Below are positions 32,130 through 60,400 of a stretch of DNA of 64,000 bases, piece by piece. Numbering within the stretch: position 1 is the stretch's first letter; each line of letters begins with the position of its first letter. The notes under the pieces are model-generated. The model was given only the letters and a program-made list of their open reading frames with translations. It did no database searches and had not been told where the DNA came from. The stretch spans positions 4,241 to 68,240 of the forward strand of contig MFSE01000021.1 in the NCBI GenBank assembly GCA_001784805.1, read 5' to 3'. The DNA comes from Candidatus Moranbacteria bacterium RIFOXYA12_FULL_35_19. Lineage in GTDB: Bacteria > Patescibacteriota > Minisyncoccia > Moranbacterales > UBA2206. A program made the position numbers and the translations under genes.

Positions 32130-33192
32130 AATCGAAGCATTATTCGAGAGAGAGAGAGAGAGTAAAAGGCTTTTCCATATTTATGATGATATCATCTCTT
32201 TTGAAAATTTGCTAATTTCGTGGCAAGAATTTTTGTGTGGAAAAAGAAAACGTAAAGATGTGGCAGAATTTTCTTTGAATTTTATGGACAATATTTTCGC
32301 GCTTCATAAAGAACTCAAAGAAAGAACTTATCAACACGGTGGATATCAAGCTTTCAAAATTAGCGATCCAAAACCGAGAGATATTCATAAGGCCAGTGTT
32401 CGTGATCGACTAGTACATCACGCTATTTATCGGATTGTATACCCATATTTTGAGGAGAAATTCATTTTTGATTCTTATTCTTGCCGAATCAAAAAAGGCA
32501 CGCATAAAGCGATAAATCGTTTTCGATATTTTAGCCTAAAAGTTTCAAAAAATAATACTCAAACTTGTTGGATTTTGAAATGCGACATCAGAAAATTTTT
32601 CGCCAATATTGATCACCAAGTTCTCAAAAATATTTTAGCCAAAAATATCGTGGATGAAAATGTTTTATGGCTTATGACGCAAGTTATTGATAGTTTTACC
32701 TCGCCCCAGCCCTCTCCTTGTAAAGGAGAGGGGATTAAAGGTCTTCCGCTGGGCAATTTAACTAGCCAGCTTCTGGTGAATATTTATATGAATGAATTTG
32801 ATCAATATGCGAAAAGAGAATTAAAAACGAAATATTATATCCGCTACGCTGATGACTTTGTGATTTTTCACGAAAACAAAAATTATTTAGAAGATCTTAT
32901 CTCTGAAATTTCTAAATTTTTGGAAAATAAACTCAAACTTTCTCTCCATCCGGATAAAGTTAGCATAAATACGCTATCTTCGGGCGTTGATTTTCTTGGC
33001 TGGGTGAATTTTTCGAAACATAGAATTTTACGGACAAGCACAAAAAGAAGGATGATAAAAAAAATTAAGAAAAATACCACGCCAGAAGCAGTTGCTTCTT
33101 ATTTGGGTTTACTTTTGCATGGAAATACATATAAATTGGCAAATAAAATAACAAAGCTCTATTTTGAAAAGAAGAAGATTTCCAATATTTGA
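32116..33192 (+). CDS. DGR reverse transcriptase
   Basis: NLL..W.EF..GKRKRKDVAEF N-terminal region, RDRLVHHA, CRIKKGTH, LPLGNLTSQLLVNIY (DGR-specific SQ motif), IRYADDFVIF. Confidence 0.9.
   Translation: MILCKIEALFERERESKRLFHIYDDIISFENLLISWQEFLCGKRKRKDVAEFSLNFMDNIFALHKELKERTYQHGGYQAFKISDPKPRDIHKASVRDRLVHHAIYRIVYPYFEEKFIFDSYSCRIKKGTHKAINRFRYFSLKVSKNNTQTCWILKCDIRKFFANIDHQVLKNILAKNIVDENVLWLMTQVIDSFTSPQPSPCKGEGIKGLPLGNLTSQLLVNIYMNEFDQYAKRELKTKYYIRYADDFVIFHENKNYLEDLISEISKFLENKLKLSLHPDKVSINTLSSGVDFLGWVNFSKHRILRTSTKRRMIKKIKKNTTPEAVASYLGLLLHGNTYKLANKITKLYFEKKKISNI
32146..32162 (+). repeat. (GA)8 dinucleotide microsatellite inside the 5' end of the RT ORF
   Basis: gagagagagagagagag within codons 11-16 of the annotated RT start. 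Confidence 0.9.
32710..32733 (+). repeat. GC palindrome (ccctctcctt-gtaa-aggagaggg) in-frame in the RT, just before the SQ motif
   Basis: Encodes SPQPSPCKGEG. The Bordetella-type RT has no equivalent residues here. Same ccctctc/gagaggg termini as elements in miaA, dnaE and 33265-33319. Confidence 0.7.
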
Positions 33193-33264
33193 AAAAAATG
33201 GTATAATATCTATAAGAGTTGAAGAAATATAAAATAAAATTATTAAAATTTTTGTGAGGTCTTA

Positions 33265-33319
33265 TCCCTCTCTGTCTCGATGAGTACATTGAGACATCTC
33301 TCCCTAAGGGAGAGAAGGA
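33265..33319. repeat. GC-rich compound palindromic element (family 1), intergenic copy
   Basis: tccctctctgtctcgatgagtacattgagacatctctccctaagggagagaagga. Confidence 0.75.
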
Positions 33320-33332
33320 TAATAGAAAATCT

Positions 33333-34904
33333 ATGTACGACATTTTAATTAAAAACGGAAAGATAATTGATGGCACGGGGAAGCTGGGGTTTTTTGCAGA
33401 TGTTGCGATCAAAGAAGATAAGATTATAAAGATTGGCGAATTGCATAATGAAAAGGGAGAAATTGAAATTGATGCCATGGGAAAAATTGTTTGTCCGGGG
33501 TTTGTGGATGTGAATAATCATAGCGATACTTTTTGGCAGATATTTTTGAATCCTGATTTGGAAAGTCTGGCCTATCAAGGCATTACCACGATTATCGGCG
33601 GAGCCTGCGGATCTTCGCTGGCACCACTCGCAACTCCTCTGACCATTGAATCAATTCAAAAATGGGTAGATCTTAGAAATATAAATTTTAGCTGGTTGTC
33701 CATGAAAGAATTTCTAAAAATAATGGAGGTTAAAAAAATATCAGTTAATTTTGCAACATTAGTGGGTCATGAAAATTTACGGCGAGGGATATTGAAAAAC
33801 GAATTGCGTTCGCTTAATCCAAAAGAAATAAAATTTATTGAAAAAACATTTCAGGATTCTTTGCAGGCAGGTGCGCTCGGACTTTCTACGGGTCTTGTTT
33901 ACACTCATGCTCGACTAGCGACAAGTGAGGAGCTGATGAATCTCGCTAATATTGTTAAAAAATATGACGGAGTTTATGTAACGCATATTCGCGATGAAGC
34001 CAGAGAAGTTATTGAATCGGTCGAAGAGGCGATTAAAATTGGCCGAGAAGTCAAGATGAAACTACATATCGCTCATCTCAAGATAATGGGAAAAGAGAAT
34101 TGGAAAAAAATGAATGAAGTTTTGGAACATATTTCCTTAGCTAAAAAATCTGGAATAGATATCTCTTTTGATGTGTATCCTTATACCAATACCGGTTCGG
34201 TATTGTATGCAATGCTTCCAAGTTGGGTAGCGGAAGGCGGGAGAAAAATAATGCTTCATCGTCTAAAAGACCCAGCTATTCGGATAAAAGTTATAACAGA
34301 AATGAAAAAATCCGGTTTTGAATATGAAAAAATTGAAATTGCATCCAGCCTGATGGATAAAACTTTGACAAGCCGAAAAATAACGGAAATTGCAATTTCG
34401 CAAAATAAAACAGTGGAAGAAGCGATTATTGATGTTTTAATTGCTTCAGAAGGTCGAGTAATAACTTCCATGGAAATTTTAAGTGAAGAAAATGTGAGAA
34501 TGGCAATTGCTCATCCGCTTTCAATGATTGCGTCCAACGGAGCTGGGTACAGCTTGAATCATGCAAAAACTGGAGAGCTGGTTCATCCAAGATCATTTGG
34601 CACATACATCAAAGTTTTGGAAAAATATGTTTTAGAGGAAAAAATAATTTCTTTTGAAGAAGCTATTCGAAAAATGACCTCGTTTCCGGCAGAAAAATTT
34701 GGAGTTGTCAAAAGAGGAAAACTGGCAAAAGGATTTTTCGCTGATGTTTTAGTTTTAGATAAAAATAAAATTTCTGCTCCAGCCGATAAGGAACGACCAT
34801 ACCAATATTCACAAGGAGTTGATTATTCTTTGGTAAATGGTAAAATGGTTATTCAGGAAGGGAAATATATGGGGATGAGGAATGGGAAAGTAATAAGGCG
34901 GTAA
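33333..34904 (+). CDS. amidohydrolase family, N-acyl-D-amino-acid deacylase (D-aminoacylase)-like
   Basis: MYDILIKNGKIIDGTG...VCPGFVDVNNHSD metal-binding HxH-type motif and overall architecture. Confidence 0.8.
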   Translation: MYDILIKNGKIIDGTGKLGFFADVAIKEDKIIKIGELHNEKGEIEIDAMGKIVCPGFVDVNNHSDTFWQIFLNPDLESLAYQGITTIIGGACGSSLAPLATPLTIESIQKWVDLRNINFSWLSMKEFLKIMEVKKISVNFATLVGHENLRRGILKNELRSLNPKEIKFIEKTFQDSLQAGALGLSTGLVYTHARLATSEELMNLANIVKKYDGVYVTHIRDEAREVIESVEEAIKIGREVKMKLHIAHLKIMGKENWKKMNEVLEHISLAKKSGIDISFDVYPYTNTGSVLYAMLPSWVAEGGRKIMLHRLKDPAIRIKVITEMKKSGFEYEKIEIASSLMDKTLTSRKITEIAISQNKTVEEAIIDVLIASEGRVITSMEILSEENVRMAIAHPLSMIASNGAGYSLNHAKTGELVHPRSFGTYIKVLEKYVLEEKIISFEEAIRKMTSFPAEKFGVVKRGKLAKGFFADVLVLDKNKISAPADKERPYQYSQGVDYSLVNGKMVIQEGKYMGMRNGKVIRR

Positions 34905-35039
34905 AGAAAATTTTTAATTTGAAATTTTGTAATTTTTAGTTAATTTGAAATTTTTAATATTAAAAATTCATTAAAAATTTCTAATTAAAAACTAAAAATT
35001 AAATAACAGTAACTTAATTTAATGGAAAATATATAGGAA

Positions 35040-36437
35040 ATGGATATCATTGATCTAAAAAACAAGCGAATTACAGTTATGGGTTTGGGTCTTCATGGAG
35101 GCGGTGTGGGAACCGTCCGTTTTTTATTTGAAGTGGGAGCGAAAATTACGGTAACGGATTTGAAATCCAAGGAAGAATTAGCCTCTTCGCTTGAGAAATT
35201 AAAAGATTTGAAAAATATTTCTTATGTTTTTCAACAACATCGTCCGGAAGATTTTCTTAGTGCTGATATGGTAATAAAAAATCCAAGTGCGCCATGGAAC
35301 AATAAGCAAATAAAGTTGGCGTTGGAAAATAAAATTCCAGTGGAAATTGATTCCAGTCTTTTTTTCAAATTATGTAAAAATCCAATAATCGGTGTTACGG
35401 GCACCAAGGGAAAAACAACTACCGCCACTTTGATTTATGAAATTTTGCGTTTAGCCGGAAAAAATCCAATCAAAGTCGGCATTGGTCAAACTTCTGTATT
35501 GGATAAACTCAAAGAGCTTAAAAAAGATTCAGCTGTTGTTTTTGAGCTTTCCAGCTGGCGATTATCTGCTTTGGGAAAAAATAAAATTAGTCCAGAAACG
35601 GCGTTAATTACCAACATTTATCCAGATCATTTGAATTATTATAAATCAATGGATGAATATATTACGGATAAAAAAAATATTTTTCTTTATCAGAAAAATG
35701 AAAATAGTTGTGTGATAAATAATGATAATGAATTGATCAAAAAATTTGAAGGAGAGATAAAATCAAAATTGATTAAGTTTTCAAAAAATAAAATTTCAGA
35801 AGGCAGAGCGGTTTATCTGGACAAGGGTGTGATTTATTTCAATGACGGAATGGATGAAAAAAAGATTGTAGAGGTAAGCGAAATAAAAATAAAAGGCGAG
35901 CATAATTTGGAAAATATTATGGCCGCCTCGGCTGTTTCTTTGGCTATCGGAATAAAAATAGAAATAATTCAAAAAGCCATTAAAGAATTTTCTGGAATAG
36001 CACATCGGCTGGAATTGGTGCGAGAATTAGATGGAATAAAATATATAAATGATACGGCAGCAACCACTCCGGAAGCGGGAATTTCTGCGCTTAAATCTTT
36101 CTCGGAGCCAATAATTCTAATAGCTGGAGGTTCAGATAAAAATTTAGATATGACTGAATTTTCTAAAATTATTTGTAAGAAGGTAAAAGGCGTGGTTTTT
36201 TTGAAAGGTGTGGCGACGGAAAAAATAATTACAGAAATGAAAAAAAATGATAGTTGTCTAGATGCAGAAAATCTTAGAATAGTTGAATCAATGGAAAAAG
36301 CGGTGGAATTGGCAAGGTCGGTGGCGGAAAAAGGCGATATAATTTTGCTTTCTCCTGGTTCGGCCAGCTTTGGATTATTCATTAATGAATTTGATCGAGG
36401 GGATAAATTTAAGGAGGTGGTGGGAAAATTGAAATAA
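35040..36437 (+). CDS. murD: UDP-N-acetylmuramoylalanine--D-glutamate ligase
   Basis: GVTGTKGKTTT P-loop; Mur ligase middle and C-terminal domains; N-terminal Rossmann GLGLHGGG. Confidence 0.9.
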   Translation: MDIIDLKNKRITVMGLGLHGGGVGTVRFLFEVGAKITVTDLKSKEELASSLEKLKDLKNISYVFQQHRPEDFLSADMVIKNPSAPWNNKQIKLALENKIPVEIDSSLFFKLCKNPIIGVTGTKGKTTTATLIYEILRLAGKNPIKVGIGQTSVLDKLKELKKDSAVVFELSSWRLSALGKNKISPETALITNIYPDHLNYYKSMDEYITDKKNIFLYQKNENSCVINNDNELIKKFEGEIKSKLIKFSKNKISEGRAVYLDKGVIYFNDGMDEKKIVEVSEIKIKGEHNLENIMAASAVSLAIGIKIEIIQKAIKEFSGIAHRLELVRELDGIKYINDTAATTPEAGISALKSFSEPIILIAGGSDKNLDMTEFSKIICKKVKGVVFLKGVATEKIITEMKKNDSCLDAENLRIVESMEKAVELARSVAEKGDIILLSPGSASFGLFINEFDRGDKFKEVVGKLK

Positions 36438-36439
36438 AA

Positions 36440-36464
36440 AAACTCCTATCCGGGAGTTTTTATT
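36440..36464. terminator. bidirectional terminator (aactcc-tatccg-ggagtt with flanking A/T runs)
   Basis: Between murD (+) and the tRNA genes (-). Confidence 0.55.
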
Positions 36465-36466
36465 TG

Positions 36467-36540
36467 TGGGCGATTCAAGATTCGAACTTGAGACCTCGTC
36501 ATTATCAGTGACGCGCTCTAACCAACTGAGCTAATCGCCC
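36467..36540 (-). tRNA. tRNA-Ile (GAU); CCA not encoded
   Basis: gggcgattagctcagttggttagagcgcgtcactGATaatgacgaggtctcaagttcgaatcttgaatcgccca cloverleaf. Confidence 0.9.
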
Positions 36541-36590
36541 GCATGTGGACCCTATCCCGCTTTAAGCGGGATCACCCCTCAGATTTTATG
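36541..36590 (-). repeat. degenerate duplicate of the tRNA-Ala 3' end (T-arm replaced by a cccgcttaaagcggg hairpin)
   Basis: ggggtgatc[...]gatagggtccacat repeats the last ~33 nt of tRNA-Ala. Confidence 0.6.
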
Positions 36591-36663
36591 TGGACCCTAT
36601 CGGGCTCGAACCGATCACCCCCTGCTTGCAAAGCAGGTGCTCTACCAAATGAGCTAAGGGCCC
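36591..36663 (-). tRNA. tRNA-Ala (UGC) with G3:U70; CCA not encoded
   Basis: gggcccttagctcatttggtagagcacctgctTTGCaagcagggggtgatcggttcgagcccgatagggtcca; anticodon UGC. Confidence 0.9.
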
Positions 36664-36706
36664 AAATTTTCAAAACTATATTTTATTGTAAAGCAAAAAA
36701 ACAGTA

Positions 36707-36735
36707 TTGACAAGAGTATATACATAATATATAAT
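36707..36735 (+). promoter_or_regulatory. sigma70-type promoter for the secE-nusG-rplK-rplA cluster
   Basis: TTGACA-17 nt-TATAAT, followed by the hairpin aagcccggaggggctt in the leader. Confidence 0.6.
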
Positions 36736-36781
36736 CAAGTCAATAAAGAAAGCCCGGAGGGGCTTTTAAAAGACCCTAATT

Positions 36782-36967
36782 ATGAACAAGATATTAAATT
36801 TTTTGAAAGATGCCAAGGTGGAACTGACAAAAGTTAATTGGCCAACACGCAAAAAAACAATCAACTATACAATAATTGTAGTTGGTATTAGTTTGGCGGT
36901 GGCGGCGTTTTTAGGTGGACTGGATTATTTTTTTGGGTATTTACTTAAGATATTTATTTTAAAATAA
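36782..36967 (+). CDS. secE: preprotein translocase subunit SecE
   Basis: VELTKVNWPTRKK motif plus a single TM helix. Confidence 0.85.
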   Translation: MNKILNFLKDAKVELTKVNWPTRKKTINYTIIVVGISLAVAAFLGGLDYFFGYLLKIFILK

Positions 36968-36977
36968 TTATACAATT

Positions 36978-37523
36978 ATGGCAAAACAATCTCAACATCA
37001 TGGCCGAGCTTGGTATGTATTACATACTTACTCTGGCTATGAAGATAATGTATCAAGAAATTTGCGTCAAAGAATTGAATCAATGGATATGCAGGATTTA
37101 ATTTTTGATGTGATGGTGCCGATTGAAAAGAAAATTAAAATTAAAGCGGGAAAAAGAACAGTGGTAGAAGAAAAAATATACCCAGGGTATGTTTTGGTAG
37201 ATATGATAGTCACGGATGCTTCTTGGTATGTAGTTCGAAACACGCCAAATGTTACGGGTTTTATCGGACTAGGAACAACACCTACGCCTGTTGATCCGCG
37301 GGAAATTGAAACGCTCAAGAAAAGAATGGGTGTGGCGGAACCGAAATATAAAATTGATGTCAAATCAGGCGACTCGGTTAAGATTATTGATGGACCATTT
37401 AAGGAATTTGATGGCAAAGTGGATGAAGTCGATGAACAAAAAGGCCGAATCAAAGTGTTAGTTTCTATTTTCGGACGGGAAACGCCGGTCGAGTTGGACT
37501 TTTTGCAAATAAACAAGATATAA
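36978..37523 (+). CDS. nusG: transcription antiterminator NusG
   Basis: NGN domain WYVLHTYSGYE; C-terminal KOW GDSVKIIDGPFKEFDGKV. Confidence 0.9.
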   Translation: MAKQSQHHGRAWYVLHTYSGYEDNVSRNLRQRIESMDMQDLIFDVMVPIEKKIKIKAGKRTVVEEKIYPGYVLVDMIVTDASWYVVRNTPNVTGFIGLGTTPTPVDPREIETLKKRMGVAEPKYKIDVKSGDSVKIIDGPFKEFDGKVDEVDEQKGRIKVLVSIFGRETPVELDFLQINKI

Positions 37524-37600: not shown

Positions 37601-37606
37601 AATAAA

Positions 37607-38029: not shown

Positions 38030-38032
38030 GCT

Positions 38033-38127
38033 CCTACAAAATTACAAAAACATACAAAAATACAAAAGTACAAAAAATTAGAATTTCGTAATTTTGTACT
38101 TTTGTAAAAATTTGTATTTTTGTAGGG
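38033..38127. repeat. TACAAAA-family hairpin element (pair partner at 38973-39066)
   Basis: acaaaattacaaaaacatacaaaaatacaaaagtacaaaa / gtacttttgtaaaaatttgtatttttgtagg. Confidence 0.75.
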
Positions 38128-38197
38128 TTATAAATATTAATTAAGTGGGAGAATCTAACTGTTTTAAAAAAGATTCATTATTACCACAGAAAACTAT

Positions 38198-38887: not shown

Positions 38888-38902
38888 TATTTAGAACAAA
38901 GG

Positions 38903-38972: not shown

Positions 38973-39066
38973 CTACAAAATTACAAAAACATACAAAAAT
39001 ACAAAAGTACAAAAAAGTAGAATTTTGTAATTTCGTAATTTTGTAAAAATTTGTATTTTTGTAGGT
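38973..39066. repeat. TACAAAA-family hairpin element (near-identical to 38033-38127)
   Basis: ctacaaaattacaaaaacatacaaaaatacaaaagtacaaaaaagtagaattttgtaatttcgtaattttgtaaaaatttgtatttttgtagg. Confidence 0.75.
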
Positions 39067-39074
39067 TCACAATT

Positions 39075-43617: not shown

Positions 43618-45102
43618 GTGCAAATTAGCGATCCTATGAAGTATACTCCCGTTATCGGCATGGAAATCCATGTTGAGCTAAAAACTAAATCGAAAATGTT
43701 TTGTCAGTGTAAAAATGGTTTGGGGCTTGAAAAAAAGCCAAATATTGATATTTGTCCTGTTTGTACGGCGCAACCAGGAACACTGCCGGTGCCAAACATT
43801 CAAGCAATTGAATTTGTTCAGTTGGCTGGTTTGGCGTTGGGTTGCAATTTGCGTCAAATTTCAAAGTTTGATCGTAAGAACTATTTTTATCCGGATATTC
43901 CCAAGGGCTATCAAATTTCTCAATATGATCAACCATTCTGCGAAAAAGGAAAATTGAAAATAAATGACAAAGAAATTGGGATCACTCGCATTCATCTCGA
44001 AGAAGACACGGGAAAATTAATTCATCCAAAAGGAGTAGAATATACTCTAGTGGATTTTAATCGGGCGGGAGTACCACTGATGGAGCTGGTGACGGAACCA
44101 GACATTGAAACGGGCGAAGAAGCGCGAATTTTTTGTCAAAAATTGCAACAGATTTGTCGCTATTTGGAAATTTCTGATGCCGACATGGAAAAAGGTAATA
44201 TGCGTTGTGAAGCCAATATTTCACTTTATAAAGAAGGTGAGGAAAAATTATCAGGTACGAAAGTGGAAGTGAAAAATATCAATTCATTTAAGTTTGTGGA
44301 AAAAGCCATCAATTTTGAAATAGAAAGGCAAACAGAACTTTTGGATAAAGGTGAGAAGATTGTTCAAGAAACTCGCGGATGGGATGCGAACAAGGGCGAA
44401 ACAATTTCGCAGCGAAAAAAAGAATCGGCGCATGACTATCGCTATTTTCCGGAACCAGATATTCCGCCGTTTAGTTTCGATGAAGAATATATAAATGATC
44501 TAAAAAGAAAATTACCAGAATTGCCGGCGCAAAAAGAAGAAAGATTTCGAAAGGAATATAATCTTCCCGCAGGCGATGTGGATGTTTTAACGAATGATAA
44601 AGATTTGGCTGAATATTTCGAACAAGTCGTAAGTGAGATTAAAGAAAAGATAAAATGTAAAGAATATGAATGTGTTGAAGACAAAGCAATAAAATTATCC
44701 GCTAATTATGTGATAACAGAGCTTAGAAAATATATGGTTTTGGAAAATCACAAAATTCAAGATCTGAAAATTACGCCAGAAAATTATGCGGAACTAATTT
44801 GTATTGTCGCAGGGGGAAAAATAAATTCCAGCGCGGCGCAAGCAGTGCTTGCCGAAATGTATAAAACAGGAGGGGACCCCTCACAAATTATCGAAGAAAA
44901 AAATTTGGCGCAAATGGATAATTCAGAAGAGCTGGAAAAAGTTATTGATGAATTATTGGCTAAAAATGAAAAATCAGTCGCTGATTTCAAGTCCGGCAAG
45001 GAAAACGCACTAAAATTTTTAATTGGGCAAACTATGGCGATGACAAAAGGCAAAGCTAATCCGCAAATAGTGCAGGAAATAATTAAGAAAAAACTAATTT
45101 AA
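43618..45102 (+). CDS. gatB: Asp-tRNA(Asn)/Glu-tRNA(Gln) amidotransferase subunit B
   Basis: VIGMEIHVELKTKSKMFC N-terminus and full-length GatB pattern. Confidence 0.9.
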   Translation: MQISDPMKYTPVIGMEIHVELKTKSKMFCQCKNGLGLEKKPNIDICPVCTAQPGTLPVPNIQAIEFVQLAGLALGCNLRQISKFDRKNYFYPDIPKGYQISQYDQPFCEKGKLKINDKEIGITRIHLEEDTGKLIHPKGVEYTLVDFNRAGVPLMELVTEPDIETGEEARIFCQKLQQICRYLEISDADMEKGNMRCEANISLYKEGEEKLSGTKVEVKNINSFKFVEKAINFEIERQTELLDKGEKIVQETRGWDANKGETISQRKKESAHDYRYFPEPDIPPFSFDEEYINDLKRKLPELPAQKEERFRKEYNLPAGDVDVLTNDKDLAEYFEQVVSEIKEKIKCKEYECVEDKAIKLSANYVITELRKYMVLENHKIQDLKITPENYAELICIVAGGKINSSAAQAVLAEMYKTGGDPSQIIEEKNLAQMDNSEELEKVIDELLAKNEKSVADFKSGKENALKFLIGQTMAMTKGKANPQIVQEIIKKKLI

Positions 45103-46110
45103 AAACTTTTTCACTTCTTTTTCTACATCCTTGTATTTCGGAAGCCAAATTATTCTTTTGTCTTTTTGAAACCAAGTCATTTGGCGCTTGGCGTAATTTT
45201 TTTCGGCGAGATAAATTTGTTCAAATAGTTCCCTGTTAAATACGGCTTCGCCTGTTTCGCTTCGCTCAAATTTAACAGGGTAAACCTCTTTGCGTAAATA
45301 TTCCGAGATTATCTTATAACCTAAACCGAAACTTTCCAATCTTTTCCAGCTGATTTTATTTTCGAAATGTAATTTTTTAACTTCCTTGATCATGCCTGCG
45401 AAGAATCTTTGCTTCAATCTTTTTTGGATATTCTGATAAAGTTTTTCTTTGGGGAGGTTGATTCCTATTTGTAGTGTTTCGTACTTTCGTTTATTTCGTA
45501 GTTCGTAAATGCTAGGGATTTTGCCGATACTTTTACAAATTTCAATAGCGCGAATGAGACGGACTGGATTTTTGGCGTCAATATTTTTTGCGCGAACCGA
45601 ATCTAATTTTTTTAGCATCTGGAATAATTTTTTGGCTGAATAATTATGTAATTTATTACGTAATTCCCAATCTGGTGCAACTTCTGGATAAATGACATTA
45701 TCAACCAGTGCTTTTATCCAAAAGCCGGTGCCACCACAAATAATCGGGATTTTCTCGCGCCCTAGAATATCTTTGATTATTTTGTCAGCATACTTTTTGA
45801 ATTTAGCCGAATTATATTCGGTCTTTGGACTTATAATGTCAATACCGTAATGAGGAATTCTTTCTGAGTAAAAAGTTCCCCCCTCTCTGTCGCGAGTACG
45901 CGACATCTCTCCCAAAGGGAGAGAGGGATATGAATTATCTTTTTCAATTTTTCCAGTACCAACATTCATGCCACGATAAATTTGGCGAGAATCCGCACTA
46001 ATTATTTCTCCGTTAAATTTTTTGGCAAGTTTAATTGCCACAGCTGATTTGCCAGATGAGGTTGGACCGAGAATAACAATTATTTTATTGTTTGCATAAG
46101 ATTCGCGCAT
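45094..46110 (-). CDS. miaA: tRNA dimethylallyltransferase, with in-frame repeat-element insertions
   Basis: IVILGPTSSGKSAVAIKLA P-loop, ADSRQIYRGMNVGT; insertion PSLPLGEMSRTRDREGG encoded by the GC palindrome. Confidence 0.9.
   Translation of the reverse strand: MRESYANNKIIVILGPTSSGKSAVAIKLAKKFNGEIISADSRQIYRGMNVGTGKIEKDNSYPSLPLGEMSRTRDREGGTFYSERIPHYGIDIISPKTEYNSAKFKKYADKIIKDILGREKIPIICGGTGFWIKALVDNVIYPEVAPDWELRNKLHNYSAKKLFQMLKKLDSVRAKNIDAKNPVRLIRAIEICKSIGKIPSIYELRNKRKYETLQIGINLPKEKLYQNIQKRLKQRFFAGMIKEVKKLHFENKISWKRLESFGLGYKIISEYLRKEVYPVKFERSETGEAVFNRELFEQIYLAEKNYAKRQMTWFQKDKRIIWLPKYKDVEKEVKKFLN
45478..45515. repeat. TACGAAA-family half-element inside the miaA coding sequence
   Basis: gtttcgtactttcgtttatttcgtagttcgtaaa matches the repeat consensus gtttcgtatttcgcttatttcgtagttcgtaa; encodes SIYELRNKRKYET. 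Confidence 0.7.
45878..45927. repeat. GC-rich compound palindromic element (family 1) in-frame in miaA
   Basis: cccccctctctgtcgcgagtacgcgacatctctcccaaagggagagaggg; about 22 extra residues relative to E. coli MiaA between GTGK and HYGIDI. Confidence 0.8.
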
Positions 46111-46115: not shown

Positions 46116-47258
46116 TTATAATAAATTTCGTAAAACTTTTTCTCTTCTTTTTTTCTCATCCCAGGAAATTGGGTCGCCTAATTTATAGGCAGTGGTTCCG
46201 GGGCGAGGGGAATATTTATTGATGTAGGCTTCGTTAAATTGCACTTTTTTAAAAACTTTGACTGATTCCTGAAAATCTTTTTCAGTTTCACTAGGAAAGC
46301 CAACAATTACATCAGTGGTAAAACTCACGCTGGGGATTATTTTTTGCGCTTTTTTAATTAAATCTAGATAATGTTTTTGGGTGTATGGCCGATTCATGGC
46401 TTTCAAAATTTTGTTGCTTCCAGATTGAATGGGCAGATGAATTTCTCGGGAAATATTTTTATTTTTGGCAATTACTTTCATTAACTTTTCGGAAAAGTCT
46501 TTAGGGTGAGAAGTCAAGAATTTAAATTTAATTTCAGGAAAAGATTGAGCGAGGGAATTAAGAAGTTTCGGAAAATTATAATTACCCGCCTCATCGGCGG
46601 ATGAATTCTTATCGATAAATCGATAAGAATTCACATTCTGTCCCAACAAAATTATTTCTTTGCAATTTTTTTTCGCTAGATTTTTAATTTCTTTTAAAAT
46701 ATCTTGAATTGGTCTTGAAATTTCTCGACCTCGGGCATAAGGCACGACGCAGTATGAGCAGAAATTATTGCAGCCAGTCATAATGGGGATATAGGCGGTG
46801 TGTTGGTTGGTGTATTTTGGGATAATAGTTAGATAATTGTCATTGCGAGGGAGCGTAGCGACCGTGGCAATCTCATTCTTAGCAATATTTTGCTTAATAT
46901 TTCGAGATTGCTTCGCTATGCTCGCAATGACATCAGGAAAATCCTTTATCTCGCAAAATAAATCAACTTTATCTTTTAATCTTCTCTGCACATCTTTTCG
47001 ATTAGCAAGGCAACCCGTAAGAATTATAAGTGGTTTTTTTGTTTCATGCTTCATGTTGCGTGCTACATGAATATTATGTATTTGCCCATAAACACGATCC
47101 TCCGCCATTTGTCGCACACCGCAAGTATTGAAAATAACCAAATCAGCTTTGTTTATTTCTTTTGTCGGTTTAATTTTTTGCGATTCTAAAAAGCCTGCAA
47201 TTCGCTCGGAATCACTCTCGTTCATTTGACAACCGAAGGTTTTAATGTAATAATTCAT
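46116..47258 (-). CDS. miaB: tRNA-i6A37 methylthiotransferase (radical SAM MTTase), with in-frame repeat-element insertions
   Basis: MNYYIKTFGCQMNESDSE N-terminus, CNNFCSYCVVPYARG radical-SAM motif. Confidence 0.9.
   Translation of the reverse strand: MNYYIKTFGCQMNESDSERIAGFLESQKIKPTKEINKADLVIFNTCGVRQMAEDRVYGQIHNIHVARNMKHETKKPLIILTGCLANRKDVQRRLKDKVDLFCEIKDFPDVIASIAKQSRNIKQNIAKNEIATVATLPRNDNYLTIIPKYTNQHTAYIPIMTGCNNFCSYCVVPYARGREISRPIQDILKEIKNLAKKNCKEIILLGQNVNSYRFIDKNSSADEAGNYNFPKLLNSLAQSFPEIKFKFLTSHPKDFSEKLMKVIAKNKNISREIHLPIQSGSNKILKAMNRPYTQKHYLDLIKKAQKIIPSVSFTTDVIVGFPSETEKDFQESVKVFKKVQFNEAYINKYSPRPGTTAYKLGDPISWDEKKRREKVLRNLL
46839..46931. repeat. 93-nt palindromic element (family 3) in-frame in miaB
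   Basis: gtcattgcgag...ctcgcaatgac termini; the reverse complement is ~85% identical to 63313-63405 in argS; encodes VIASIAKQSRNIKQNIAKNEIATVATLPRNDN. Confidence 0.85.
47040..47075. repeat. CATGAAA-family half-element inside the miaB coding sequence
   Basis: gtttcatgcttcatgttgcgtgctacatgaa encodes NIHVARNMKHE. Confidence 0.6.
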
Positions 47259-47733: not shown

Positions 47734-49530
47734 CTACTTAATTTCTGCAATAACCTTTTCAATAAACTTTTCAACTTTCATAACTTCTTGCTTGCCCGCC
47801 ATAGCTTTAGCGTCGGCGGGCTCTTTTTCCTTTCTTGATCGAACAGCGACAGAATTATCGGCTTCTTCTTTTTCTCCCACTACTAGCATGTATGGAATTT
47901 TTTGTTTTTCGGCTTCGCGAATTCTTTTGCCAAGCGATTCTGATTCGTCGCTAATTTCTACACGAATATTATTTTCTAATAATTGCGAATATATTTTTTG
48001 CGCGTAAGAATTAAATTTTTCACTCACTGGTAAAATAGCCACTTGCACTGGAGAGAGCCAAAGCGGAAACGCGCCAGCGAAATGTTCAATGAGAAGAACC
48101 AAAAATCTTTCGTAAGATCCTAAAATTGCACGATGCACCATAACTGGAGGAACTTTTTCACCTTTTTCATTTATATACTCAAGGCCGAATCTTTTTGGAG
48201 TGGCAAAGTCAATTTGGACAGTAGGAATTTGAATTTCTCGTCCAGTCGCATCCTTAAACATAAAATCTAATTTTGGTCCATATAATGCTGCTTCGCCCTC
48301 TCTTTTTTGAGCATCTAATTTTATTTCATCAGAGATTTCTTGAAGCATTTTTTCACAAATGTCCCAGTCTGATGATTCGCCTATATATTTTTCTGGATGA
48401 TCATAGTCTCTAACAGAAAGAGAAACCCAATGATTATCCCATAAACCAATAGAACTATATAAATCCTTAATAATATTTACCATATTTTTAATCTCATTTT
48501 TTACTTGATCAACTCTACAAAAAGAATGACCATCTTCAACTGTGATGGCATAAACCCTAGAGAGTCCACCGACCTCGCCGGTTTTTTCAGCTCGGTACAT
48601 TTTATCTGATTCCATATATCTTATAGGTAAATCTTTGTAGGATCTTGTTTTAGAAGCATAAAGCTGGGTATGATGAGGGCATTGAACTGGTTTTAGGACA
48701 AAATTATGTTTTTTATCTGATGTCACATGAAACAATTCATCGCCAAATTTTTTAGCATGCCCAGAAGTTTCAAAAAGTTCAATCTTTGCTAATGCCGGAG
48801 CCGATACTTTTTCAAATCCATAATGGCGACAAATTTTTTCTACTTCTTTTTTAAGCTCCTCTATTATAGTTGTTCCTTTGGGAGTAAAAAGGGGAAGTCC
48901 TGGACCGACTAAATCAGAAAAACAAAACAGATCTAATTCTTTCCCAAGTTTTCGATGATCTCTTTTTTCCGCTTCTTCGAGCATATGCAAATATTCATCT
49001 AATTCTTTTTTAGTTTCAAAGGCGACGCCATAAATTCGCTGAAGCATTTTGTTTTTTTCATCTCCTCGCCAATAGGCACCGGAAATTTTGGTGAGTTTGA
49101 AGGCGTCAAAAGGAATTTCGCCAGTAGAATCAAGATGTGGGCCAGAGCAGAGGTCGATGAAGTTGCCGGATTTGTAAACAGAAACCATTTTGTCTGCCGA
49201 TGAGGCAGATTTTTTCTCTAAATCCTTAATCAACTCAACCTTATATGGTTGTTTCGCCTTTTTGAAATCTTTCAAAGCTTCTTCGATTGAAATTTCTGCT
49301 TTTTCAAAAGGATGATTGGCTTTGATAATAGCTTTCATTTTTTCTTCCAAAATTTCCAAGTCTTCTGGAATGAGAGTTCGCGGAAGATCAAAATCATAAT
49401 AGAATCCGTTTTCAATCGCTGGTCCAATGGCAAACTTAGCTTCCGGAAACATTTGGAGAACTGCTGATGCTAAAACATGGGAAGTTGAGTGGCGCAAGAT
49501 GTCTAAATTAGTTTGTGATTTTTTTGGCAT
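47734..49530 (-). CDS. thrS: threonine--tRNA ligase (no N-terminal TGS extension)
   Basis: Class II aaRS motifs, HRKLGKELDLF, anticodon-binding C-terminus. Confidence 0.9.
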   Translation of the reverse strand: MPKKSQTNLDILRHSTSHVLASAVLQMFPEAKFAIGPAIENGFYYDFDLPRTLIPEDLEILEEKMKAIIKANHPFEKAEISIEEALKDFKKAKQPYKVELIKDLEKKSASSADKMVSVYKSGNFIDLCSGPHLDSTGEIPFDAFKLTKISGAYWRGDEKNKMLQRIYGVAFETKKELDEYLHMLEEAEKRDHRKLGKELDLFCFSDLVGPGLPLFTPKGTTIIEELKKEVEKICRHYGFEKVSAPALAKIELFETSGHAKKFGDELFHVTSDKKHNFVLKPVQCPHHTQLYASKTRSYKDLPIRYMESDKMYRAEKTGEVGGLSRVYAITVEDGHSFCRVDQVKNEIKNMVNIIKDLYSSIGLWDNHWVSLSVRDYDHPEKYIGESSDWDICEKMLQEISDEIKLDAQKREGEAALYGPKLDFMFKDATGREIQIPTVQIDFATPKRFGLEYINEKGEKVPPVMVHRAILGSYERFLVLLIEHFAGAFPLWLSPVQVAILPVSEKFNSYAQKIYSQLLENNIRVEISDESESLGKRIREAEKQKIPYMLVVGEKEEADNSVAVRSRKEKEPADAKAMAGKQEVMKVEKFIEKVIAEIK

Positions 49531-54482: not shown

Positions 54483-54486
54483 AATA

Positions 54487-54515: not shown

Positions 54516-54525
54516 TTTTGTATAA

Positions 54526-55638: not shown

Positions 55639-55771
55639 ATTTAACCTTGCGGAAAGTGCCTATTGCGCACATTTACAAAAAGCCTTATAATACAAGGGTA
55701 AATAGGGGAATAAATAATAATTAATTAAGTTTCATTCTTTTCTCACAAAAAAGAACGAAGCAAAAAAAGCA

Positions 55772-56053
55772 ATGACAAAAATGACAAAGTCACAACTGAT
55801 GTCAGCTTTGGCTGAAAAAACCGGACTTTCCAAAAAGGATGTCATCGGTTTTATGGATACGCTGGTTGAAATGGCGTATTCAGAAGTGAAGAAGAACGGA
55901 GTTTTCGTTCTTCCTGGTTTTGGAAAAATGGTCAAGGTTAACCGAAAAGCTCGAGTGGGAATCAACCCAGCTACAGGAGCAAAAATTAACATTGCTGCAA
56001 AAACTGTAGCAAAGTTCCGATTGGCAAAAGCTGCCAAGGAAGCTGTGATGTAA
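55772..56053 (+). CDS. hup: DNA-binding protein HU
   Basis: MTKSQLMSALAEKTGLSKKDV...GFGKMVKVNRKARVGINPATGAKINIAAK. Confidence 0.9.
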   Translation: MTKMTKSQLMSALAEKTGLSKKDVIGFMDTLVEMAYSEVKKNGVFVLPGFGKMVKVNRKARVGINPATGAKINIAAKTVAKFRLAKAAKEAVM

Positions 56054-56123
56054 TTTTACTTGAAACTGAAAAAGGCCTTGCGAAAGCCTGCCTCATCGGC
56101 AGACAAGCGGGGTCTTTTTTTAT

Positions 56124-56210
56124 GTTTTACGAACTACGAAATAAGCGAAATACGAAACAATAAAACTTTCTTTTCGTATTTCGTTAGTTTCGTAGTTCGT
56201 AAATTAAAAA
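56124..56210. repeat. TACGAAA-family hairpin element
   Basis: ttttacgaactacgaaataagcgaaatacgaaac ... ttttcgtatttcgttagtttcgtagttcgtaa. Confidence 0.85.
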
Positions 56211-56227
56211 TCTGTTATAATTAAAAA

Positions 56228-56779
56228 ATGCAAAAAGAAATTATTTTAAACAACCAAAAAATTCCTTATACTTTTCGCAAAAGCCGACGATCGAGATGTA
56301 TGCGCCTAACAATCAAAACTGACGCGACTTTGGTGGTGAGTGTGCCATGGCTGTTGAGTGGAAAAAAGGCGGAAGATTTTATCATGCAAAAGGCGGATTG
56401 GATTTTGGGGAAGATAAAACATTTTCAAAATAAGGAATCGAGCTTGCCGTCGGCAACGAGAAAAGATTATTTGAAATATAAAAATTTGGCGCGTGAGATT
56501 GTTGAAAAAAAGTTGAAATATTTCAATGAATTTTATGGTTTTTCATATAATCGAGTTTTCATTCGCAATCAAAAGACTCGTTGGGGGAGTTGTTCTAAGG
56601 TGGGCAACCTAAATTTCAGCTACCGGATAATCTATCTTTCCGAAAAACTTTGCAACTATATAATCGTCCACGAACTTTGCCACCTCGGCGAGTTCAATCA
56701 CTCCCAAGATTTTTGGGATCTCGTGGCAAAAACCGTGCCGGAGTATAAGAAGATAAGGAAAGAGATTAAGGGAATGTGA
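56228..56779 (+). CDS. YgjP/SprT-like (DUF45) zinc metallohydrolase
   Basis: C-terminal IIVHELCHLGEFNH (HExxH). Confidence 0.7.
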   Translation: MQKEIILNNQKIPYTFRKSRRSRCMRLTIKTDATLVVSVPWLLSGKKAEDFIMQKADWILGKIKHFQNKESSLPSATRKDYLKYKNLAREIVEKKLKYFNEFYGFSYNRVFIRNQKTRWGSCSKVGNLNFSYRIIYLSEKLCNYIIVHELCHLGEFNHSQDFWDLVAKTVPEYKKIRKEIKGM

Positions 56780-56785
56780 TTTTTG

Positions 56786-56850
56786 TTTTAAAAAAAGATA
56801 TGAAAAAAAGAGGCTTTTGACGGTTGTGTCGAAGCCTCTTTTTGCTGTAA
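56786..56850. terminator. bidirectional terminator (aagaggctt-ttgacggttgtgtcg-aagcctctt)
   Basis: Between the ygjP-like gene (+) and the 56856 gene (-). Confidence 0.5.
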
Positions 56851-56855
56851 TGGAT

Positions 56856-57404
56856 TTATGGGAGCTTTTGGTTTCTTGTGAATTCTCGATATGTTTCTTC
56901 CGCGGATATGTGGTGGCATCCACAGAGGCCTTCCTTAGCTTCTTCTAAGGTGTAATTTTCAACAAGACACTTATCGCATATTCCACCTCGCTGAGGCCAT
57001 AGAATATTATGATAAGCGGGACATTTTTTGCATTTTCTCCAACCGTGAATAACCTCTCTCCCTCTTTCAATGAGGTCATCTTCAATTTCTTCCAGAATAG
57101 ATATCTTGGAGATTGTAAGATACAGAAAAATTGCAATGATTACTGTGATAATAGGATTGGAGATGGTTAGTATTGTTTCATAACCGCAATAAAATAGTGT
57201 CACGAAGCAAAAAATAATAGCCATAAATACTAGTGCATAAAGCACTAAAGCAAATATTTTAAGTTTTATTATCAATGTCGCTGTCTCCGATTGATGCCGA
57301 TATTGCAAAGAACTTTGTTTCATTTTTCCACCTCCTGGATAAAAAATGATTGTTATTATAAAATCGCCTAATGGCAGTGTGGCATATAAAATTGTTTTTT
57401 TCAA
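56856..57404 (-). CDS. membrane protein with C-terminal Cys4 zinc-ribbon
   Basis: Two or three TM helices, then CKKCPAY...CDKC...CGCH. Confidence 0.45.
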   Translation of the reverse strand: MKKTILYATLPLGDFIITIIFYPGGGKMKQSSLQYRHQSETATLIIKLKIFALVLYALVFMAIIFCFVTLFYCGYETILTISNPIITVIIAIFLYLTISKISILEEIEDDLIERGREVIHGWRKCKKCPAYHNILWPQRGGICDKCLVENYTLEEAKEGLCGCHHISAEETYREFTRNQKLP

Positions 57405-57419
57405 GTGTCTGTCTTTTTT

Positions 57420-60400
57420 TTACCAAATATCAACCTTCCCCTCCGGCACAATTATTTTCAAAGCTTTTTCGAGCTCTGTGGTGTTTTGGATGCAGTAGGG
57501 GGTTTCGAGCTTGGATCCGCCAATGGAAAGATATACTTTCATAGCACCTAGTTCGCAACGATCAAATAGGGAGGAGAGATTTTTTAGGATGGCTTTGTCG
57601 AAATTTGGTGGGAGGGTAATAATTAATCTGGAAGATTTATTTGCCCTCTCTTGTCCCGACAAAGTCGGGATATACTCTCCCAAGGGGAGAGGAGGATTTT
57701 GAAGAGATTTTTTTGTAGGCTCACCGCCATTGTTTCTTTGCGTGTGGAGAATTCTTTTGAAATTTTCTAATTCTTGCTGGTTGATTGATTTGGCGCTGTC
57801 GCAAAGCAATTTGAATTCGCCGTCTTTGTCGGAAATTTTTCCCGTGGCTAAAATAATTTTGTCTACTTCCCAGATTGAACCGGTGGCTTCTAGAGTTTTG
57901 GGAAAAATCAAAATTTCCATTTGAGAAGTCGTATCTTCAATGGTGGCAAAAGCCATCATTTTTTGATTTTTGAGATAAATCTTTTTTATTTTGGAAATTA
58001 TTCCGCCGATGGAAACGGTTTGTCCAACCAGTTGAGGATTTATATTTCGAATTGGCACGGCCATTTTTTCTAAATAATCTTGATAATCTCGAACCGGATG
58101 ATCGCTAATATAAAGTCCAAGGAGTTCCTTTTCCCAAGCAAGCTTTTCTTTTTTAGAAGCCTCCACGGAAATCTCCAATTTTATTTCTGGCAATTTCATA
58201 TCTGCTTCTCCAAAAAGACTATTTTGTTTAGTACTTGAAATTTTTTCCAAATTTTTGGAGTGAGCGAGAATGTTTTCAATAGAAGATAAAACGGCATTTC
58301 TTTCGGCCAATTCTTCTAGCGCACCAACTTTTGAGAGAGCCTCAATGGATTTTTTATTCAAATCTTTATGCTTTACTCTTTCAATGAAATTAGTTAGACT
58401 CAAAAATTTTCCGCCTCTTTTTCTTTCTTCGACAATTTCATGAGCGACTGTGTGGCCGACATTTTTTACCGCATTTAATCCAAAGCGGATTTTCCCGCCT
58501 CGCGTCGACTCGCCTCGATCCGACAATCGAGTCGGAGCGGGCGAGCGATCGTCTCCGCGAGTCGAGGCGGGTTTAGTATTATTTTCTTCATTCATGATCA
58601 CGGCAAACTGCTCAAAACTTTCATTGACATTCGGGGACAGAACTTCGATGCCCATTTCTCGACACTCGGCAATTTCAATGGCGACACGATCAATATTGTC
58701 TTGATCAGAAGTGAGAAGCGCGGCCATAAATTCGGCTGGAAAATGCGCTTTCAGATAAGCGGTTTGATAGCCGACTAGCGCATAACACGCGGCATGACTT
58801 CTATTAAACCCATATCCCGCAAAAGGTTCGATGTAGGCAAAAACTTTTTCTCCAATAGTTCCGGCGATGCCTTGTTTCATACAGCCTTCAATGAATTTAT
58901 GTTTTTGCTCGGTAATCAGCGCAAAGATTTTTTTACCCATTGCTTTTCGAAGTACATCGGCTTCACCAAGAGTGAATCCGGCCAAGGCTTGAGCGATTTG
59001 CATCACTTGCTCTTGATAGACTGCCACACCGTAAGTTTTTTCTAAAATCGGTTTCAAATTCGGATGCAAATATTTAATTTCTTTCTCGCCGTGTTTTCTG
59101 GCGATAAAATCCGGAATCCAATCCATAGGACCGGGGCGATATAGCGCTACCATAGCAATAATGTCTTCAAGAACATTGGGCTTCAAGAGTTTTAGATATC
59201 TTTTCATTCCAGAACTTTCTAGTTGAAATACGCCGGTGGTGCGAGCTTCTTGCAAAAGGCGAAAAGTTTTTTTGTCATCCAGTGGTATATCGTCAATGTT
59301 GATTTCTTTTTGGCGAGTTTTTTTTACGATCTTAAGCGTGTTTTGAATAATAGTTAAATTTTTTAGTCCCAAAAAGTCCATTTTCAAAAGGCCAATTTTT
59401 TCCACAAAACTATATTTAGTCGAAGAAGAATATTGCGTCACAGTGCCGTCGCCTTTGCCGGTTATTTTTTGCAACGGAGTATATTCACTCACAGGTTCTT
59501 TGGTGATAACTACTCCGCAAGCATGCATCGAGGCATGACGCACCACACCTTCGAGCCGTCCGGCGCTGTCAATTAATTTTTTTCCTCCCTCATTATTTTT
59601 ATGCAAATCGCTAAATTCTTTGACATTTTCTAAAGCATCGGAAATTGTAGAAAACATCGGAATCATTTTAGCGGTTTTGTCGCAAAAGTCATAAGGCAGA
59701 CCGAGCGCCCGACCAGCGTCGCGGATGGCAGCGCGGGCGGCCATAGTTCCAAAAGTGATGATTTGCGCCACATGATCATTGCCATATTTTTTTCTCACAT
59801 ATTCCAAAACTTCATCTCTTCTGTCATCGGCAAAATCCATATCGACATCAGGCATAGAAATTCTTTCAGGATTCAAAAATCTTTCAAATAGTAAATCGTA
59901 TTTTATCGGATCAATATTAGTGATACCGATGAGATAGGAAACGAAACTTCCGGCAGCGCTACCGCGGCCGGGGCCAACCACGATGCCTTGTTCTTTGGCC
60001 CAATTGACAAAATCTTGCACGATCAAAAAGTAAGAAGCAAAACCAGTTTTTCTAATCACATCTAATTCATATTCCATTCTTTGTTTTTGCTCGGAGTCAA
60101 TATTCTCGCCAAATCTTTTTTTGAGTCCATCTTCGGTAAGACGCCGAAGATAAGTTTCAGCCGTATAACTTTGCGGAACATCAAATTCCGGAAGTTGAGT
60201 CTCCCCAAGTTTTATAGTAAGGTTGCATTTATCCACGATTTCTTGAGTATTAGCCAGTGCTTCGGGAATATTTTTGAAATGCTCGGCCATTTCCTCGGGG
60301 CTTTTGAGATAGAGCTCAAAAGCCATCAAATTCATGCGATTAGTTTCAGTAACTTTTTTGTTAGTCTGAATACACAGTAAAATATCTTGAATTTCATTGT

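Follow-up and report, generated by a model that had tools for sequence, protein, structure and literature searches.

BoxC/PIT/TMECO-type repeats, canonical and hairpin-expanded, in frame in genes of a Moranbacteria genome

What are the four GC-rich palindromes that sit in and beside genes of Candidatus Moranbacteria bacterium RIFOXYA12_FULL_35_19, and how have protein-coding genes come to hold them? The stretch analysed, 64,000 nt of contig MFSE01000021.1 (assembly GCA_001784805.1, positions 4,241 to 68,240), is called the window throughout, and positions are counted along it. The original prediction was of a palindromic element inserted in frame in miaA, dnaE and the reverse transcriptase (RT) gene of a diversity-generating retroelement (DGR), with a fourth copy between genes, and of a kind undescribed for genomes like those of the candidate phyla radiation (CPR). 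All four repeats were located, no more than 3 nt from the predicted coordinates: three compound palindromes of 49–55 nt and a shorter copy in the RT gene, giving element lengths of 38–55 nt across the set. Sequence comparison assigns them to the BoxC/PIT/TMECO superfamily, the RT copy as a canonical member and the other three as hairpin-expanded members; on this evidence the element is not a new family private to CPR. The four copies are:

33266–33320, plus strand: hairpin-expanded copy in the 5′ leader of an amidohydrolase gene; fold z = −4.8; covariance model 59.1 bits, E = 5e-13. Block 1 CCCTCTCT 33266–33273; inner hairpin GTCTCGATGAGTACATTGAGAC 33274–33295; AT 33296–33297; block 2 CTCTCCC 33298–33304; loop TAA 33305–33307; block 3 GGGAGAG 33308–33314; tail AAGGAT 33315–33320.
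45881–45929, plus strand (gene on the minus strand): hairpin-expanded copy in miaA; covariance model 62.2 bits, E = 8e-14. Block 1 45881–45888; hairpin GTCGCGAGTACGCGAC 45889–45904; AT 45905–45906; block 2 45907–45913; loop AAA 45914–45916; block 3 45917–45923; tail AGGGAT 45924–45929.
57644–57697, plus strand (gene on the minus strand): hairpin-expanded, partly degenerate copy in dnaE; covariance model 46.2 bits, E = 8e-10. Block 1 CCCTCTCTT 57644–57652; hairpin GTCCCGACAAAGTCGGGAT 57653–57671; ATA 57672–57674; block 2 57675–57681; loop AAG 57682–57684; block 3 57685–57691; tail GAGGAT 57692–57697.
32698–32735, plus strand: canonical copy, without inner hairpin, in the DGR RT gene, read in sense as TSPQPSPCKGEGI. 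Block 1 aCCTCGCCCC 32698–32707; AG 32708–32709; block 2 CCCTCTCCTT 32710–32719; loop GTA 32720–32722; block 3 AAGGAGAGGGG 32723–32733; AT 32734–32735.

The published TMECO pattern is CCCTCNCCC-N3-6-GGGNGAGGG-N3-GGGNGAGGG, and the repeat has been known since the 1990s under the names BoxC, PIT element and TMECO (Holder et al. NAR 2015, PMC4666352). Searching one genome per bacterial species for the 3′ half of the window element (CTCTCCCWARGGGAGAGRRGGAT) gave at least 118 loci, against ~0.3 chance matches by our own estimate, and the matches listed span Chloroflexi, Planctomycetes, Proteobacteria (including Enterobacter and Pseudomonas), cyanobacteria and CPR. The form of most of them, CCCTCACCCC-N3-CCCTCTCCC-N3-GGGAGAGGG (third block also written GGGAGAGGGGGAT), is the reverse complement of the TMECO pattern (PMC4666352). 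At least 20 positions of the element are identical across phyla, far above what composition alone predicts. The three blocks and both loop lengths of the RT copy fit the TMECO pattern with 2–3 deviations, the pattern test allowing one mismatch. By BLAST the RT copy matches E. coli intergenic BoxC loci (85.7% identity over 86% of the query, E = 5e-4), and 2974 genomes give partial matches. The E. coli loci are the same as those matched by a canonical Moranbacteria copy, L011, which finds 5378 of 5426 complete E. coli genomes at a median of 16 unannotated intergenic places each. Termini that are those of BoxC/PIT/TMECO, present in so many E. coli genomes and in several phyla, do not support the claim of an undescribed element. 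An Rfam scan of the whole window at gathering thresholds returned two tRNAs only and no family for the element.

Earlier work provides a good deal of background on this repeat. TMECO is present in 3610 copies in 262 genomes, with 23 copies in E. coli K-12, where it is always intergenic; it is not linked to transposases, promoters or terminators, and its loci are associated with local genomic instability (PMC4666352). Earlier E. coli work cited in the same paper found PIT/BoxC copies to be without promoter or terminator activity.

The anatomy of the three full copies follows one plan. On the plus strand, block 1, CCCTCTC(T or CT), is followed by a GTC...GAC inner hairpin, a 2–3 nt linker starting AT, block 2 CTCTCCC, a 3-nt loop, block 3 GGGAGAG and a purine tail, RRGGAT. 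Block 1 mirrors block 2, at every position in the 33266 and 45881 copies and at all but one in the dnaE copy; blocks 2 and 3 are Watson–Crick complements. The RT copy had been described as a short form; the copy itself is real, but it is no short form, because aCCTCGCCCC-AG precedes the part described and makes it a complete three-block canonical copy. The 33266 copy had been labelled intergenic; its 3′ end lies 13 nt ahead of the amidohydrolase ATG at 33333, which places it in the 5′ leader, and an orthologous copy in Moranbacteria UBA2206 (L111) conserves this arrangement. An outer Watson–Crick stem (5′ ATCC/3′ GGAT) drawn in some folds was rejected as a family feature, because it is absent from the ~50% GC family described below, whose tail is ACAAGT.

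These structures are not expected by chance. In the window the core CTCTCCC-NNN-GGGAGAG is present three times, where dinucleotide-preserving shuffles would give 0.04, and a scan for a homopyrimidine hairpin with an upstream mirror block matched only the three full loci and the RT hairpin, with ~0.6 matches per window in Markov shuffles. Each copy folds 3.5–4.8 standard deviations better than shuffles in ViennaRNA, whose folds contain Watson–Crick and wobble pairs only. The covariance model had been proposed as a check; ours was trained on 84 copies, all from other genomes with the window copies excluded, and in the window it returned exactly the three full copies at the E values given above and no other full-length copy.

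The canonical and hairpin-expanded forms are joined by further copies. Hybrids combine a hairpin-type 5′ side with a canonical GGGGTGAGGG third block (L159, L169, L222), and CPR copies whose block 1 reads CCCTCACCT are intermediate between the two. CPR genomes (Moranbacteria, Parcubacteria and the 'Patescibacteria group') hold many copies built like the three in the window, and a metagenome scan for GACAT(N)CTCTCCC-NNN-GGGAGAG found at least 119 loci. Specificity to CPR does not hold for this form either: a very uniform family, GCCCTCTCTGTCGCTGCGCGACATCTCTCCCAGAGGGAGAGACAAGT (L133, L165, L168, L198 and ~40 other metagenome loci), is found in contigs of ~50% GC, several with a human-gut metagenome label, and is often preceded by two further hairpins. 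The L133 contig encodes butyryl-CoA dehydrogenase and EtfAB (bcd-etfAB), and its host is therefore not CPR. Other hairpin-type variants lie in contigs of 29–35% GC, one or more of which are marine (a TARA scaffold). The range of the hairpin-expanded repeats takes in CPR, human-gut contigs that look Firmicutes-like, and marine contigs. In intergenic regions of Parcubacteria and Moranbacteria, type-1 and type-2 hairpin copies often stand head-to-head ~100–150 nt apart with an AT-rich spacer (L102:1013-1183 and 2263-2434; L098:6359-6529; L085:3473-3608; L049:3828-3975; L089:5778-5943). For possible carriage on mobile DNA the matches were weak and partial: they were to six unannotated 'Bacteriophage sp.' contigs from faeces and to two plasmids, with most of the element covered in the Martelella plasmid alone. 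The six faecal-contig matches belong with the uniform family GCCCTCTCTGTCGCTGCGCGACATCTCTCCCAGAGGGAGAGACAAGT.

Covariation in these copies bears on what is being conserved. The inner hairpin has 65 distinct sequences, across which the original observation that the stems differ and yet stay paired holds good. In an ascertainment-free subset, pairing is seen at stem position 4 in 91% of copies and at position 5 in 95%, by way of C-G, G-C, A-T and T-A. Covariation scores 0.114 in the alignment and 0.031 in shuffles, and no slid register holds up. Selection on structure had been concluded from this pairing; that is one reading, and strand-symmetric maintenance through template switching or gene conversion between copies gives the same pattern. 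Within the helix, G-T wobbles occupy 3 cells and mismatches 13, and because wobbles are the rarer the data suggest a strand-symmetric, DNA-level palindrome rather than an RNA-only helix. The blocks covary in a second way. Among 103 distinct hairpin-type copies (of 104), position 8 of blocks 1, 2 and 3 reads C/C/G in 51, T/T/A in 49 and otherwise in 3, so that both subfamilies keep the third-strand rule (C with G-C, T with A-T) together with the Watson–Crick pair. A triplex or mirror constraint would predict this pattern. Literature searches for hairpin-type junctions (GACATCTCTCCC, CCCTCTCTGTC and complements) returned nothing relevant, and the hairpin-expanded architecture with its covarying connector looks new, no description having been found in the literature searched.

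Three of the four window copies lie in genes:

45094–46110, minus strand: miaA (tRNA dimethylallyltransferase), 338 aa; homologues carry PF01715/PF01745 and the NCBI name MiaA; predicted insert junction peptide DNSYPSLPLGEMSR.
57420–61043, minus strand: dnaE (DNA polymerase III alpha subunit), 1207 aa; homologues carry PF07733, PF02811 and related domains; predicted insert junction peptide SLQNPPLPLGEYIPTLSGQER.
32116–33192, plus strand: DGR-type RT gene, 358 aa; RVT_1 E = 1e-24; GLPLGNLTSQ motif present.

The hallmark of Rickettsia palindromic elements (RPEs), an in-frame palindromic insertion that orthologues lack, was found for all three. Alignment to orthologues bears out the in-frame insertion in miaA. 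The window MiaA is 97% identical to a metagenome protein and 81% to a protein of a named Moranbacteria metagenome-assembled genome (MAG). The copy is read antisense as PSLPLGEMSRTRDREGG, MiaA residues 62–78, between the GTGK and IPHY motifs; these residues are present in P0001–P0004 (97–69% identity) and absent from P0006, P0007, P0009 and P0013 (66–68% identity, BLASTP). A gain of about 22 residues had been predicted: the element itself accounts for 17, and 22 is the difference from orthologues that also lack a pre-existing extension. Quite different inserts occupy the same position in other Moranbacteria. The AlphaFold2 model of MiaA has a mean predicted local distance difference test (pLDDT) score of 87 and falls below 50 at residues 66–76, so that the insert lies in a low-confidence loop of an otherwise confident model and is consistent with an exposed floppy loop. 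A second segment below 50, residues 279–283 (~45262–45276, minus strand), lies within ...VKFERSETGEAVFNREL... and may be a lineage-specific insert.

The dnaE copy, likewise confirmed by orthologue alignment, is read as PPLPLGEYIPTLSGQERA in a variable linker before the last conserved DnaE segment. The window DnaE is 91% identical to a Moranbacteria MAG protein (NCBI name). The insert is present in P0121–P0125 and absent from P0126–P0130, with related inserts patchy further out. In the DNA of dnaE orthologues (L238, L240, L241) the blocks are kept and the hairpins differ: GTCTCG/CGAGAC against GTCGCG/CGCGAC is a true compensatory pair between orthologues, and the window stem is different altogether. 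The 'empty' orthologue P0126 keeps block remnants and is therefore a deletion derivative, not a virgin site. In contrast to the miaA copy, the dnaE copy is decaying.

The RT protein has ~10 extra residues just before GLPLGNLTSQ relative to all close homologues, a third in-frame insertion. The DGR occupies 29353–33192, with a variable repeat (31141–31286), a template repeat (31616–31761, 78% identical) and the RT gene (32116–33192); the variable repeat lies at the 3′ end of a 648-aa open reading frame (ORF) without Pfam match. With one copy inside the RT gene and the 33266 copy 73 nt past its stop, the latter was considered as a DGR component. This was rejected, as UBA2206 keeps the copy beside the same amidohydrolase gene without a DGR; the adjacency for that reason looks like a rearrangement boundary. 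Synteny of the UBA2206 locus with the window ends at 33227, ~40 nt from the copy.

Residence in genes is not peculiar to the window. In other low-GC genomes, hairpin-type copies lie in frame in genes for RecG, ArgRS, HsdM, BacA-family proteins (UppP, twice), a MiaB-like radical-SAM protein, ComEC and RNase HII, and canonical copies in genes for GluRS, a GH31 glycosidase, a Wzy_C ligase and a PD-(D/E)XK nuclease-domain protein, inside or between the Pfam matches of the host protein. Besides the three in the window, at least 15 copies in these genomes are in frame in Pfam-confirmed genes, and the intergenic-only rule of E. coli K-12 does not hold here. The comparisons with orthologues show the genic copies as in-frame insertions that fall in variable loops. 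Because the frames of the host genes are uninterrupted, which would be unexpected if the inserts were removed from mRNA, the inserts are most likely translated, and the three genic window copies most likely add a floppy loop of 10–18 residues to their host proteins.

The same few loops are reused by different elements in different lineages. In the MiaB-like gene of a syntenic relative, L187, a canonical and a hairpin-type copy lie side by side (...TPSPQPSPEYGRGGNSYPSLPSGEMSRCTHRDREG..., L187:3170-3270), and at the same codon position (~46590–46610) the window MiaB-like gene (46116–47258, minus strand) has a different small GC palindrome, TCCGCCGATGAGGCGGG, which we read as element turnover at one protein loop. 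The MiaA loop and the DnaE loop near residue 823 have each received several unrelated inserts. Either random insertion is tolerated only there or the elements home to existing palindromes; both are possible. Literature searches on palindromic in-frame elements in CPR/Patescibacteria found no prior description in the papers covered, and frequent in-frame residence in essential genes with turnover at fixed loops looks new.

Further inserts and repeats were noted. MiaA residues 54–87 and DnaE residues 815–850 carry many unrelated Moranbacteria inserts, such as PDRPGEIPRKF...KFxSG, KSKVKSQKSKLQ and KKSLALRNSES. A second GC-rich palindrome family, CCCGCCTCG...CGAGGCGGG, occurs at 58477–58580 (inside dnaE), at 16378–16451 and at L084:3619-3664. 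Its dnaE copy is in frame near residue 823 and absent from 70 of 70 aligned orthologues, P0121 having a different insert at that site; the L084 copy, an additional element of 46 nt in that locus's miaA, is 100% identical to window 16393–16438. Another GC-rich palindrome, sharing CGCTAAAGCTATGGCGGG, occurs at 16276–16324 and 47782–47830, one on each strand. Long AT-rich intergenic palindromes of several families (TTACGAAATACGAAATAAGCGAAATACGAAA, TACAAAAACATACAAAAATAC, CATATTAACATTTTAACA) lie at 10672–10739, 56119–56210 and 61050–61133, and also at 38043–38129, 38982–39067, 14660–14729 and 16140–16225; the TTACGAAATACGAAATAAGCGAAATACGAAA family is also present in the Moranbacteria locus L099.

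We therefore propose, as the fairly probable reading, that the copies are BoxC/TMECO-type non-coding repeats that spread at the DNA level and are retained as in-frame loop inserts where tolerated. The repeat has three parts: a homopyrimidine block, its mirror-image block and a homopurine block complementary to it. In single-stranded form, blocks 2 and 3 would pair as a hairpin and block 1 would come to rest against the purine arm as the third strand of an intrastrand, H-DNA-like triplex. Where canonical copies, the RT copy included, have a short connector between the two pyrimidine blocks, 3 nt long, the other three window copies have a compact GTC...GAC mini-hairpin in its place. Coding for no protein of their own, the repeats would be multiplied or homogenised by a host- or trans-encoded DNA-level process, most plausibly one that acts on the folded single strand in replication or repair. 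No mobility gene was found among the 10 window ORFs scanned with Pfam, which agrees with the E. coli literature. Near-identical copies with the GTCGCGAGTACGCGAC hairpin stand at another locus in other genomes (L089, L143 and L166, the last with one base different), which favours such a process; with the conservation of the miaA copy given below, they point to nucleotide-level constraint, homogenisation or recent copying. Insertion would add a multiple of three bases (about 30–54 nt) and, because all six reading frames of the element are also stop-free, copies in permissive surface loops or linkers could be read through and kept as disordered inserts of 10–18 residues. Most other copies would survive only between genes, often with their purine, Shine–Dalgarno-like tail toward a start codon. 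What we infer from these data is that the repeats fold in vivo as triplex or hairpin, how they are copied, and that they are selectively neutral.

Several observations weigh against parts of this account. As regards the family, the three hairpin copies fail the strict TMECO pattern, with a connector of 18–25 nt instead of 3 and blocks of 7–8 nt instead of 9, and the hairpin-type miaA copy (45870–45940) has no BLAST match in E. coli. As regards folding, Holder et al. saw no stable triplex in duplex DNA or in vivo (PMC4666352), and the three-way covariation comes from two subfamilies, or about two independent states. No clean empty site and no definable target-site duplication was recovered at the dnaE and MiaB-like sites, so that the copies may have arisen by insertion or by conversion; read-through of the inserts we infer from frame preservation alone. 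Two findings sit poorly with neutrality. The miaA element is 96–98% identical among three orthologues whose flanks are 83–87% identical. There is also an orientation bias toward start codons: among 70 low-GC copies, an ATG ORF of at least 80 aa starts 8–30 nt past block 3 on the same strand in 14 and on the opposite side in 2, with 9% at random. Together, the two hint at function beyond neutrality. Given this bias, the Shine–Dalgarno-like tail and the 33266 copy 13 nt before an ATG, some intergenic copies may be retained for supplying or modulating a ribosome-binding site. A lagging-strand-template bias was also considered and dropped, orientation relative to local GC skew being mixed in the 70 low-GC copies (~19 to 11 for type 1).

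The start-codon bias and the slow evolution of the miaA copy relative to its flanks are also what would favour a different view, that the element is first of all a functional cis-acting RNA or a module for translation initiation, structured and placed in 5′ leaders, where its purine tail (GGAGAGGAGGA/AAGGA) would give or mask a Shine–Dalgarno sequence or set mRNA stability, with the genic copies as tolerated by-products. The leader arrangement of the 33266 copy, conserved in UBA2206, and the cTTCGg-type loops of many inner hairpins on the pyrimidine-first strand fit this view too. We nevertheless regard it as unlikely. Among 12 hairpin-type copies internal to a long ORF, 10 are antisense to the host gene and 2 sense; the bias is weak because several are orthologues of one locus, and yet copies lying both ways mean that a single RNA form cannot be the conserved thing. 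The rarity of G-U wobbles relative to mismatches in the hairpin, the lack of an Rfam match, the lack of promoter or terminator activity of PIT/BoxC in the earlier E. coli work cited in PMC4666352, and the majority of copies that are not beside a start codon all argue the same way. Selection on the inserts as protein, in the form of a recurrent PLPxGE...RE(G) peptide that would give the host enzymes an added function, for instance as an interaction loop, is less likely still, and we give it very little credence. About half of the 12 internal copies do share an antisense frame (P[PS]LP[LS]GE...), and the insert is kept across MiaA orthologues of 69–97% identity. Against this, the same DNA is also intergenic and is read in at least five different frames inside genes, the hairpin-encoded middle of the peptide differs from copy to copy without any relation, disorder is predicted for the insert, and close relatives have unrelated inserts or none in the same loops.

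The palindromic, multi-copy, in-frame behaviour in housekeeping genes and the failure of the hairpin form to find E. coli by BLAST could alternatively be taken to mean a lineage-specific, RPE-like mobile element of CPR that is unrelated to BoxC, its CCCTCTCCC/GGGAGAGGG termini having converged as GC-rich purine/pyrimidine palindromes look alike. This, too, is improbable. A canonical copy in the same window matches E. coli BoxC, hybrid and intermediate copies exist, and the hairpin form occurs outside CPR in ~50% GC contigs with bcd-etfAB. Convergence is also hard to square with at least 20 positions identical across phyla and with at least 118 loci against ~0.3 chance matches (our own estimate), and at 49–55 nt the element is much shorter than RPEs, reported at 100–150 bp.

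Membership of a superfamily with DNA-level spread, as preferred here, bears on a repeat that is among the most widely conserved of short bacterial repeats and has no accepted function or copying mechanism. The second architecture sharpens the conserved core to three blocks and their symmetry and offers biophysics a naturally occurring series of mutants. In CPR, where in-frame copies lie in genes for replication, tRNA modification, aminoacyl-tRNA synthetases and repair, the RPE phenomenon recurs in a further reduced-genome lineage, with a different element. Some apparent 'CPR-specific protein insertions' are repeat-derived, which calls for caution from annotators and structure predictors, and loop reuse by different element families offers a test of targeted insertion against tolerance filtering. 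More tentatively, and as a possibility that is less likely than not, hairpin-expanded triplex repeats may be cross-phylum, structure-defined mobile DNA, copied as folded single strands, that in CPR repeatedly becomes coding in loops of essential enzymes and turns over at fixed hot spots. If so, different families arriving at the same MiaA, MiaB-like and DnaE codons would be a driver of protein-loop evolution, and there would be a handle on the 30-year-old question of the role of BoxC.

The parallel with RPEs that was drawn originally holds for behaviour in genes. RPEs, reportedly described by Ogata and colleagues in 2000 at ~100–150 bp, are likewise palindromic, non-autonomous repeats, found in frame in the housekeeping genes of a reduced genome, where they are translated into additional surface segments; they are patchy among orthologues and subject to decay and deletion over time. 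RPEs are AT-richer, are confined to Rickettsia and relatives and have no purine/pyrimidine mirror blocks; compared by description, not sequence, they also differ in length from the 38–55 nt element. REP/BIME sequences, mobilised by RAYT (IS200/IS605-like) transposases, resemble it as short, GC-rich imperfect palindromes, often in inverted intergenic pairs and thought to be active as folded single strands. Unlike them, the element has no conserved GTAG-type head in its alignment, and no RAYT or other HUH gene is among the 10 window ORFs scanned against Pfam; REPs are species-specific and extragenic by definition, whereas this motif is near-identical across phyla. Repeats like miniature inverted-repeat transposable elements (Neisseria Correia, enterobacterial ERIC/IRU) are similarly small and non-autonomous, can lie in leaders and change expression, and occasionally extend ORFs. 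They differ in having terminal inverted repeats and target-site duplications, signs of movement by a transposase; neither feature was seen for the window element.

BoxC/PIT/TMECO is the closest of the known systems. Three window copies depart from it in having an 18–25 nt connector (a 16–22 nt hairpin and a 2–3 nt linker) in place of a 3-nt loop; E. coli copies are always intergenic, whereas three of the four in the window and many in its relatives are in frame in genes; and the host genomes here have 35–42% GC. What is shared is the three-block logic with near-identical blocks (CCCTCNCCC, CCCTCTCCC, GGGAGAGGG) and a 3–6 nt hairpin loop, and a multi-copy habit with no encoded protein, no associated mobility gene and frequent inverted pairs. 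Both are linked to local rearrangement, in the window through the synteny break ~40 nt from the 33266 copy, and the RT copy and canonical CPR copies match the E. coli loci by BLAST.

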